Position numbers and translations under genes: made by a program
DNA from: Escherichia coli
Lineage (GTDB): Bacteria > Pseudomonadota > Gammaproteobacteria > Enterobacterales > Enterobacteriaceae
Reading direction: 5' to 3' (one strand)
Length of the DNA stretch: 64,000 nucleotides
Assembly: GCF_003334815.1 (NCBI RefSeq)
Contig: NZ_QOWO01000024.1
Shown here: one piece after another, positions 20,000 through 53,835 of the stretch
Numbering within the stretch: position 1 is the first letter of the stretch
Layout of the letters: every line of letters begins with the position of its first letter
The notes under the pieces: generated by a model
The model's input: only the letters and a program-made list of their open reading frames with translations
What the model was told of the DNA's origin: nothing
The model's database searches: none

Positions 20000-21202
20000 A
20001 TGTTAAAAGTGGAAATGTTATCCACCGGGGATGAAGTGTTACACGGGCAAATCGTTGACACTAACGCTGCCTGGCTGGCCGATTTTTTCTTTCATCAGGG
20101 GTTGCCATTATCTCGCCGCAATACGGTGGGGGATAACCTTGATGACTTAGTCACCATTCTTCGCGAACGTAGTCAGCACGCCGATGTGCTGATCGTTAAC
20201 GGCGGGCTGGGACCGACCAGCGATGATTTAAGCGCACTCGCCGCTGCGACAGCAAAAGGTGAAGGCCTGGTGCTGCATGAAGCCTGGCTCAAAGAGATGG
20301 AACGCTATTTCCACGAACGTGGACGAGTAATGGCACCGAGCAACCGTAAACAAGCGGAGCTGCCTGCCAGTGCTGAATTTATCAATAACCCGGTAGGCAC
20401 CGCCTGTGGTTTTGCCGTGCAGCTTAATCGTTGCCTGATGTTCTTTACTCCCGGCGTACCGTCAGAATTTAAGGTGATGGTCGAGCACGAAATCCTGCCG
20501 CGCCTGCGCGAGCGTTTTTCTTTACCGCAGCCGCCGGTTTGTCTGCGTTTGACTACTTTTGGTCGTTCGGAAAGCGATCTGGCACAAAGCCTGGACACTC
20601 TACAACTGCCGCCGGGCGTAACAATGGGCTATCGCTCCTCAATGCCTATCATCGAACTGAAACTCACCGGACCGGCAAGCGAGCAACAGGCGATGGAAAA
20701 ACTGTGGCTGGATGTTAAACGTGTTGCCGGACAGAGCGTGATTTTCGAAGGCACTGAAGGACTGCCCGCGCAGATCAGTCGCGAATTGCAAAACCGCCAG
20801 TTCAGCCTGACGTTGAGCGAGCAATTCACCGGTGGTTTATTGGCTTTGCAACTTTCTCGCGCAGGTGCTCCATTGCTGGCGTGTGAAGTGGTTCCTTCAC
20901 AGGAGGAAACCCTGGCGCAAACTGCGCACTGGATTACAGAACGGCGGGCCAACCATTTTGCCGGGCTGGCACTGGCTGTTTCGGGTTTCGAGAACGAGCA
21001 TCTCAACTTTGCGCTAGCCACGCCAGACGGCACTTTCGCTCTGCGTGTGCGTTTCAGCACTACGCGCTACAGCCTGGCTATCCGTCAGGAAGTGTGCGCA
21101 ATGATGGCACTGAATATGCTGCGCCGTTGGTTAAACGGCCAGGATATCGCCAGTGAGCATGGCTGGATTGAGGTTGTTGAGTCCATGACCTTATCTGTCT
21201 GA
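20000..21202 (+). CDS. yfaY: CinA-like protein YfaY
   Basis: 400-aa ORF with MoCF-binding-like N-terminus (MLSTGDEVLHGQIVDTNAAWLA). Confidence 0.8.
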   Translation: MLKVEMLSTGDEVLHGQIVDTNAAWLADFFFHQGLPLSRRNTVGDNLDDLVTILRERSQHADVLIVNGGLGPTSDDLSALAAATAKGEGLVLHEAWLKEMERYFHERGRVMAPSNRKQAELPASAEFINNPVGTACGFAVQLNRCLMFFTPGVPSEFKVMVEHEILPRLRERFSLPQPPVCLRLTTFGRSESDLAQSLDTLQLPPGVTMGYRSSMPIIELKLTGPASEQQAMEKLWLDVKRVAGQSVIFEGTEGLPAQISRELQNRQFSLTLSEQFTGGLLALQLSRAGAPLLACEVVPSQEETLAQTAHWITERRANHFAGLALAVSGFENEHLNFALATPDGTFALRVRFSTTRYSLAIRQEVCAMMALNMLRRWLNGQDIASEHGWIEVVESMTLSV

Positions 21203-43343: not shown

Positions 43344-44066
43344 TCACTTATTCTGCGTGTGCAGCATATAGTTCACATCCACGCCGGGGCCGAGTTTAAA
43401 AGTATTAGTGATCGGGTTGTAATGCAGCCCAGTGATATGCCGCTCTTTTAAACTGGTCTGATCCACCCAGCCCAGCAATTCTGCCGGTTTAATAAACTTC
43501 TTCACATCATGCGTGCCTTTGGGCACCATGCGCAAAATATATTCCGCACCAACCACCGCCATCAGCCATGACTTGCCGTTGCGGTTAAGTGTCGAGAAAA
43601 AGACATCGCCGCCTGGTTTCACCAGTTGCGCACAGGCTCTGACCACTGACTGCGGATCGGGGACGTGCTCCAGCATCTCCATGCAGGTCACCACATCATA
43701 CTGCCCGGCATGTTTTGCCGCGTGCTCTTCCACGGTTTCCTGCACGTAATCCACCTGAATGCCGCTTTCCAGTGCGTGCAGTTTTGCCACCTGCAATGGC
43801 TCAAAGCCCATATCCAGACCGGTCACCGTCGCGCCTTCGCGCGCCATACTCTCGGCCAGAATGCCGCCGCCACAACCGACATCGAGCACCTTTTTGCCAA
43901 ATAAACCGCCAGCACGCTCGGCAATATAGCCCAGACGCAGCGGGTTAATGCGGTGCAGCGGTTTGAACTCACCTTCCAGATCCCACCAGCGGGAGGCGAC
44001 GGCTTCAAATTTAGCGATCTCTTCGTGGTCTACGTTATGGTTTACCGGCGATTTTTCGGCATTCAT
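43344..44066 (-). CDS. ubiG: Ubiquinone biosynthesis O-methyltransferase UbiG
   Basis: ORF-track frame trimmed to [11 protein letters not shown] (240 aa); SAM-binding motif [13 protein letters not shown]. Confidence 0.9.
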
Positions 44067-44212
44067 TGGCACTTCTACTCCGTAATTGGCAAGACAAACG
44101 AGTATATCAGGCATTGGATGTGAATAAAGCGTATAGGTTTACCTCAAACTGCGCGGCTGTGTTATAATTTGCGACCTTTGAATCCGGGATACAGTAGAGG
44201 GATAGCGGTTAG

Positions 44213-46840
44213 ATGAGCGACCTTGCGAGAGAAATTACACCGGTCAACATTGAGGAAGAGCTGAAGAGCTCCTATCTGGATTATGCGATGTCGGTCATTG
44301 TTGGCCGTGCGCTGCCAGATGTCCGAGATGGCCTGAAGCCGGTACACCGTCGCGTACTTTACGCCATGAACGTACTAGGCAATGACTGGAACAAAGCCTA
44401 TAAAAAATCTGCCCGTGTCGTTGGTGACGTAATCGGTAAATACCATCCCCATGGTGACTCGGCGGTCTATGACACGATCGTCCGCATGGCGCAGCCATTC
44501 TCGCTGCGTTATATGCTGGTAGACGGTCAGGGTAACTTCGGTTCTATCGACGGCGACTCTGCGGCGGCAATGCGTTATACGGAAATCCGTCTGGCGAAAA
44601 TTGCCCATGAACTGATGGCCGATCTCGAAAAAGAGACGGTCGATTTCGTTGATAACTATGACGGCACGGAAAAAATTCCGGACGTCATGCCAACCAAAAT
44701 TCCTAACCTGCTGGTGAACGGTTCTTCCGGTATCGCCGTAGGTATGGCAACCAACATCCCGCCGCACAACCTGACGGAAGTCATCAACGGTTGTCTGGCG
44801 TATATTGATGATGAAGACATCAGCATTGAAGGGCTGATGGAACACATCCCGGGGCCGGACTTCCCGACGGCGGCAATCATTAACGGTCGTCGCGGTATTG
44901 AAGAAGCTTACCGTACCGGTCGCGGCAAGGTGTATATCCGCGCTCGCGCAGAAGTGGAAGTTGACGCCAAAACCGGTCGTGAAACCATTATCGTCCACGA
45001 AATTCCGTATCAGGTAAACAAAGCGCGCCTGATCGAGAAGATTGCGGAACTGGTAAAAGAAAAACGCGTGGAAGGCATCAGCGCGCTGCGTGACGAGTCT
45101 GACAAAGACGGTATGCGCATCGTGATTGAAGTGAAACGCGATGCGGTCGGTGAAGTTGTGCTCAACAACCTCTACTCCCAGACCCAGTTGCAGGTTTCTT
45201 TCGGTATCAACATGGTGGCATTGCACCATGGTCAGCCGAAGATCATGAACCTGAAAGACATCATCGCGGCGTTTGTTCGTCACCGCCGTGAAGTGGTGAC
45301 CCGTCGTACTATTTTCGAACTGCGTAAAGCTCGCGATCGTGCTCATATCCTTGAAGCATTAGCCGTGGCGCTGGCGAACATCGACCCGATCATCGAACTG
45401 ATCCGTCATGCGCCGACGCCTGCAGAAGCGAAAACTGCGCTGGTTGCTAATCCGTGGCAGCTGGGCAACGTTGCCGCGATGCTCGAACGTGCTGGCGACG
45501 ATGCTGCGCGTCCGGAATGGCTGGAGCCAGAGTTCGGCGTGCGTGATGGTCTGTACTACCTGACCGAACAGCAAGCTCAGGCGATTCTGGATCTGCGTTT
45601 GCAGAAACTGACCGGTCTTGAGCACGAAAAACTGCTCGACGAATACAAAGAGCTGCTGGATCAGATCGCGGAACTGTTGCGTATTCTTGGTAGCGCCGAT
45701 CGTCTGATGGAAGTGATCCGTGAAGAGCTGGAGCTGGTTCGTGAACAGTTCGGTGACAAACGTCGTACTGAAATCACCGCCAACAGCGCAGACATCAACC
45801 TGGAAGATCTGATCACCCAGGAAGATGTGGTCTTGACGCTCTCTCACCAGGGCTACGTTAAGTATCAGCCGCTTTCTGAATACGAAGCGCAGCGTCGTGG
45901 CGGGAAAGGTAAATCTGCCGCACGTATTAAAGAAGAAGACTTTATCGACCGACTGCTGGTGGCGAACACTCACGACCATATTCTGTGCTTCTCCAGCCGT
46001 GGTCGCGTCTATTCGATGAAAGTTTATCAGTTGCCGGAAGCCACTCGTGGCGCGCGCGGTCGTCCGATCGTCAACCTGCTGCCGCTGGAGCAGGACGAAC
46101 GTATCACTGCGATCCTGCCAGTGACCGAGTTTGAAGAAGGCGTGAAAGTCTTCATGGCGACCGCTAACGGTACCGTGAAGAAAACTGTCCTCACCGAGTT
46201 CAACCGTCTGCGTACCGCCGGTAAAGTGGCGATCAAACTGGTTGACGGCGATGAGCTGATCGGCGTTGACCTGACCAGCGGCGAAGACGAAGTAATGCTG
46301 TTCTCCGCTGAAGGTAAAGTGGTGCGCTTTAAAGAGTCTTCTGTCCGTGCGATGGGCTGCAACACCACCGGTGTTCGCGGTATTCGCTTAGGTGAAGGCG
46401 ATAAAGTCGTCTCTCTGATCGTGCCTCGTGGCGATGGCGCAATCCTCACCGCAACGCAAAACGGTTACGGTAAACGTACCGCAGTGGCGGAATACCCAAC
46501 CAAGTCGCGTGCGACGAAAGGGGTTATCTCCATCAAGGTTACCGAACGTAACGGTTTAGTTGTTGGCGCGGTACAGGTAGATGACTGCGACCAGATCATG
46601 ATGATCACCGATGCCGGTACGCTGGTACGTACTCGCGTTTCGGAAATCAGCATCGTGGGCCGTAACACCCAGGGCGTGATCCTCATCCGTACTGCGGAAG
46701 ATGAAAACGTAGTGGGTCTGCAACGTGTTGCTGAACCGGTTGACGAGGAAGATCTGGATACCATCGACGGCAGTGCCGCGGAAGGGGACGATGAAATCGC
46801 TCCGGAAGTGGACGTTGACGACGAGCCAGAAGAAGAATAA
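44213..46840 (+). CDS. gyrA: DNA gyrase subunit A
   Basis: 875-aa ORF; N-terminal [28 protein letters not shown], active-site region [22 protein letters not shown], acidic C-terminal tail. Confidence 0.97.
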
Positions 46841-46859: not shown

Positions 46860-46882
46860 AAGGGAGCTATCTCCCTTGTTTG
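46860..46882 (+). terminator. Hairpin terminator candidate downstream of gyrA
   Basis: aagggag-ctat-ctccctt followed by gtttg, 20 nt after gyrA stop. Confidence 0.45.

Positions 46883-46988: not shown

Positions 46989-53835
<6,847 letters not shown>

Follow-up and report, generated by a model that had tools for sequence, protein, structure and literature searches.

The interaction of fluoroquinolones with DNA gyrase has been described for Escherichia coli, where the C3/C4 keto-acid of the drug chelates a Mg2+ ion and two waters of the hydration shell of this ion hydrogen-bond to Ser83 and Asp87 of GyrA; resistance changes in this protein most often take the form of S83L with D87N or D87Y (Carter et al., 2023; PMC9917921). 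One close relative of the gene described here is gyrA of E. coli K-12 MG1655, which likewise encodes 875 amino acids (WP_001281242.1; PDB 6rks, 3nuh, 1ab4 and 1zi0), shares 2,627 of the 2,628 bases and has the same quinolone-resistance-determining region (QRDR), promoter region, downstream region and neighboring genes, the difference being G1621T (V541L). Another is found in strain 52F4, isolated from a calf in Switzerland, whose GyrA (WP_061352875.1, also found in UniRef as A0A377DPK9_ECOLX) is identical in protein sequence, V541L included; its gyrA is one synonymous base off, at codon 285, and five bases differ over the surrounding 42.9 kb. In addition, assembly GCA_965212685.1 has a contig that agrees with the DNA studied here at every base of positions 34213-56840 (22,628 bases).

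This article describes the gyrA locus in a stretch of 64,000 nucleotides of E. coli DNA (hereafter the window), taking as starting point an original prediction, made by reading the sequence, that the gyrA QRDR is of the wild type. The open reading frame is almost certainly an ordinary chromosomal gyrA, encoding the DNA breakage-reunion subunit of DNA gyrase in a K-12-like natural E. coli, with a wild-type QRDR and a V541L substitution that is most likely neutral. The coordinates of the features discussed are collected in Table 1.

Table 1. Features of the gyrA locus and of other parts of the window (positions are those of the window; strand and basis are given where available).
Feature	Position	Strand	Basis or remark
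End of IS10/ISVsa5 (IS4-family) element	1-158		Copies with 100% identity found in 1,028 of 5,426 E. coli genomes
naRNA4 (RF02564), between nrdB and nrdA	36356-36426	+	Rfam, 76 bits
TGTTATAAT, extended -10 element upstream of gyrA	44160-44168	+	Read by eye
gyrA, ATG at 44213, 875 codons plus stop	44213-46840	+	Open reading frame listing and translation
Antisense open reading frame, 323 amino acids	44375-45346	-	Set aside as a chance frame
QRDR, codons 67-106	44411-44530	+	Nucleotide-identical to K-12 MG1655
Codon 83, TCG (Ser), susceptible state	44459-44461	+	Read in the sequence
Codon 87, GAC (Asp), susceptible state	44471-44473	+	Read in the sequence
Codon 122, TAT, catalytic Tyr	44576-44578	+	Tyr conserved in 108 of the 111 diverse GyrA proteins aligned
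Antisense open reading frame, 206 amino acids	45359-45979	-	Set aside as a chance frame
Codon 541, TTG (Leu; Val in K-12)	45833-45835	+	Base and protein comparison with K-12
Terminator-like hairpin, 20 nt past the gyrA stop	46860-46877	+	Consensus scan only; downstream region identical to K-12
yfaS (alpha-2-macroglobulin gene), intact	49321-53835		TGG where MG1655 has TGA (SNP at 53334)

Identity and Genomic Context of gyrA

The reading frame runs without internal stop to the stop codon that ends at 46840. When it was searched by megablast, every one of the 5,426 complete genomes of E. coli gave a full-length gyrA match, and of its 2,628 bases only one differs from K-12 MG1655 (NZ_CP032667.1), so that chance is no issue for this frame. 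The translated protein scored 1308.3 bits against the NCBIfam equivalog TIGR01063 (cut-off 877) and 1257 bits against NF004043 (cut-off 902), and the Pfam families DNA_topoisoIV (PF00521) and DNA_gyraseA_C (PF03989) are on record for an identical GyrA protein. It aligns end to end with solved E. coli GyrA structures, 6rks among them, chain A of which equals the protein of the window at all residues but 541, while the structure of the C-terminal domain (1zi0) matches residues 535-841.

Both halves of the protein carry the features proper to GyrA. The N-terminal breakage-reunion domain contains the catalytic tyrosine, Tyr122, through which the enzyme becomes covalently joined to DNA. The C-terminal beta-pinwheel domain holds the GyrA box (QRRGGKG) at residues 560-566, the feature that tells GyrA from ParC. 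Conservation was assessed on a set of diverse GyrA proteins drawn from a scan of 1.84 billion representative proteins, in which, among the best 150 matches, the 111 of 750-1,000 residues were aligned; in these the GyrA box is strongly conserved. On the strength of the 874 of 875 residues that it shares with the characterized K-12 protein, the product would be expected to introduce negative supercoils together with GyrB.

If the frame were instead the paralogue parC, encoding subunit A of topoisomerase IV, the residues would be misnumbered and codons 83 and 87 would not have the meaning given to them. The two proteins have the HPHGD motif and the fold in common, and topoisomerase IV structures do match the N-terminal 400 residues with E-values of 1e-111 to 1e-137. 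The score against the parC_Gneg equivalog (TIGR01062) is, however, 579 bits, below the cut-off of 628.9, as opposed to 1308 bits for the gyrA profile (cut-off 877), the GyrA box is found in the protein, and the gene lies one base away from the annotated K-12 gyrA and in gyrA synteny. The identity as parC is ruled out by the profile scores, the base comparison with K-12 and the synteny.

The gene order around gyrA (yfaL, ubiG on the opposite strand, gyrA, yfaA, yfaT and yfaS) is the same in K-12. No base differs from K-12 between ubiG and the start codon of gyrA (43344-44212), nor in the spacer between gyrA and yfaA. The upstream region includes the extended -10 element TGTTATAAT, which would form part of the known gyrA promoter of K-12; a generic sigma-70 scan did not call the gyrA promoter. 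No RNA family in or adjoining gyrA was found with Rfam. Two antisense frames of considerable length lie within the gene (Table 1); they were regarded as chance open reading frames, and in the RefSeq records examined gyrA is the only gene annotated there.

The Quinolone-Resistance-Determining Region

The original prediction had placed serine at codon 83 and aspartate at codon 87, within a motif of ten protein letters, and direct inspection of the codons found both to be exact, with the motif at residues 78-87. In the gyrA frame, positions 44459-44473 read TCG GCG GTC TAT GAC, that is, S83 A84 V85 Y86 D87. That the two classic fluoroquinolone-resistance positions carry susceptible residues is likewise borne out, and it extends to the full QRDR, which is identical to that of K-12 in its nucleotides. 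Residues 67-106 and the outlying positions 51 and 196 are free of substitutions; A51, G81, D82, A84, Q106 and A196, sites reported in the resistance literature, are all wild type, and so is R462, the site of CcdB resistance.

In the wild-type enzyme, Ser83 and Asp87 are next to the catalytic Tyr122, on helix IV, and anchor the drug-chelated Mg2+ by way of two water molecules, a water-metal ion contact that positions the drug in the complex with cleaved DNA; a gyrase that has kept both residues would be predicted to stay a fully sensitive target of fluoroquinolones. Since Ser83 and Asp87 are intact, the strain is without gyrA-mediated target resistance. With its QRDR in the wild-type state, gyrA has not undergone the change that comes first in chromosomal fluoroquinolone resistance of E. 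coli and matters most to it. High-level fluoroquinolone resistance in this species almost always includes a change at S83 of gyrA. Judged from the gene sequence, the strain is probably susceptible in phenotype and would not be expected to show high-level resistance.

The gyrA QRDR is by itself insufficient to define the phenotype, because parC, parE, gyrB, the regulators of efflux (marR/acrR/soxR) and plasmid-borne genes lie outside the window, the plasmid-borne determinants being of the qnr, aac(6')-Ib-cr, qepA and oqxAB types. A wild-type gyrA rules out target resistance in gyrA and leaves aside mechanisms that act through parC/parE, efflux or plasmid-borne genes. It is unlikely that the strain is non-susceptible to fluoroquinolones in spite of its wild-type gyrA, by means of a plasmid-borne qnr or aac(6')-Ib-cr or of up-regulated efflux encoded elsewhere. 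The IS10/ISVsa5 sequence at the start of the window is acquired mobile DNA with no counterpart at that spot in MG1655, and offers a very faint hint in this direction. The 64 kb of the window, on the other hand, contain no such gene, all open reading frames of at least 200 amino acids correspond to K-12 gene content and, as is well established, such mechanisms confer at most a low-level reduction of susceptibility when gyrA is unchanged.

Frequency of Wild-Type and Resistant Alleles

The occurrence of the wild-type and resistant states was surveyed with three 61-mers centered on codons 83-87, which were searched for exact matches in the complete E. coli genomes. The wild-type 61-mer was found in 639 genomes, the S83L 61-mer in 72 and the S83L+D87N 61-mer in 331, numbers that are confined to one synonymous haplotype and fall short of a complete tally of residues 83 and 87 in the 5,426 genomes. 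On this 61-nt haplotype S83L or S83L+D87N accounts for 403 of 1,042 complete genomes and the wild type for about 61%. The resistant alleles belong to the same gene and, in many genomes, to the same 61-nt haplotype as the window, the S83L+D87N alleles having TTG and AAC where the window has TCG and GAC. Given how often resistant alleles turn up in sequenced genomes, the wild-type call is somewhat informative. The use of this observation is restricted to strain typing, where its value is modest; it was already known and brings no new biology, and the low rating that the original prediction gave it, as useful for strain characterization only, was appropriate.

Among the E. coli genomes, one plasmid-labelled record with a copy of gyrA matches the S83L and the S83L+D87N 61-mers and not the wild-type 61-mer. 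It may represent a mislabelled or misassembled replicon, or else a transferred resistant allele.

The V541L Allele

The description of gyrA as wild type holds within the QRDR; the allele as a whole is not fully that of the reference, owing to V541L outside this region. The only difference from K-12 gyrA is G1621T (position 45833 of the window), which turns GTG into TTG and had been overlooked in the original prediction. Residue 541 belongs to the beta-strand with which the C-terminal DNA-wrapping domain begins; the GyrA box follows 19 residues later.

The allele is rare: the exact 61-mer around V541L occurs in one of the 5,426 complete genomes, that of strain 52F4, and the exact V541L protein was found on 36 contigs in a larger public collection. 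Its being unique to the window was discarded on account of this complete genome and these 36 contigs. Among the 111 diverse GyrA proteins aligned, residue 541 corresponds to valine in 59, isoleucine in 34, leucine in 15, phenylalanine in two and threonine in one. Leucine is tolerated at this place of the hydrophobic strand, as indicated by its presence in 15 of the 111 sequences. No report of V541L in E. coli gyrA was found in the literature; the only paper that combined gyrA and V541L concerns Clostridioides difficile, the numbering of which is unrelated.

The substitution is most likely a rare, neutral polymorphism that marks a natural lineage, as far as can be judged from the sequence comparisons. 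It is very improbable that the substitution, which falls in blade 1 of the beta-pinwheel of the C-terminal domain, has a functional effect, be it on the wrapping of DNA and the set-point of supercoiling or, in an indirect way, on susceptibility to quinolones. V541L is the sole non-synonymous difference from K-12 in gyrA, it occurs in a single complete genome among 5,426 and it lies 19 residues from the strongly conserved QRRGGKG, all of which would be in line with such an effect. The exchange of valine for leucine is nevertheless conservative and the column, hydrophobic as it is, varies, as the above counts show. Moreover, the allele has been kept in several independent natural assemblies at NCBI, as would a tolerated lineage marker, the neighboring genes show a similar density of private SNPs, so that gyrA is not singled out, and the position is not tied to any phenotype in the literature found. 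There is equally little probability that V541L is an adaptive or compensatory variant that subtly shifts the gyrase supercoiling set-point or the drug response in the lineage. Together, V541L and the remaining private SNPs place the window in a small natural lineage, to which 52F4 and GCA_965212685.1 also belong.

Comparison of the Window With K-12

The window and MG1655 are colinear over positions 159-64000, where they differ by 13 SNPs and by no insertion or deletion. The non-synonymous changes are H250R in arnA, I133V in rhmD, R115G in yfaV, D100N in glpA, V541L in gyrA, L155P and Q107L in rpnE/ISNCY, Q366R in yfaA and S415F in yfaQ. Most of the SNPs in the compared stretch that begins at 21100 are common to the natural isolates 1332KP and 52F4. 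The source strain probably belongs to phylogroup A.

An origin of the SNPs (10 in the first comparison) in a recoded, mutator-laboratory or otherwise artificial strain was considered and rejected. TCG is recoded in genomes of the Syn61 type. An artificial origin is contradicted by codon 83, which is still TCG, by the occurrence of most SNPs in natural isolates and by the one assembly that is identical over 22.6 kb.

Colinearity with K-12 starts inside elaD, after the end of the IS10/ISVsa5 element that occupies the first positions of the window (Table 1). Of the 4,896 places that match this sequence, 750 are on plasmids. Either elaD is interrupted by the insertion sequence or the source contig ends at a copy of it.

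Two further observations concern regions at some distance from the gyrA coding sequence. One of the SNPs, at 53334, lies in yfaS, where the window has a tryptophan codon in place of the internal stop of MG1655, in which yfaS is a pseudogene. With Rfam, the window gave a single match above the gathering score, naRNA4 in the nrdA-nrdB spacer, which probably represents a repeat of the REP type.
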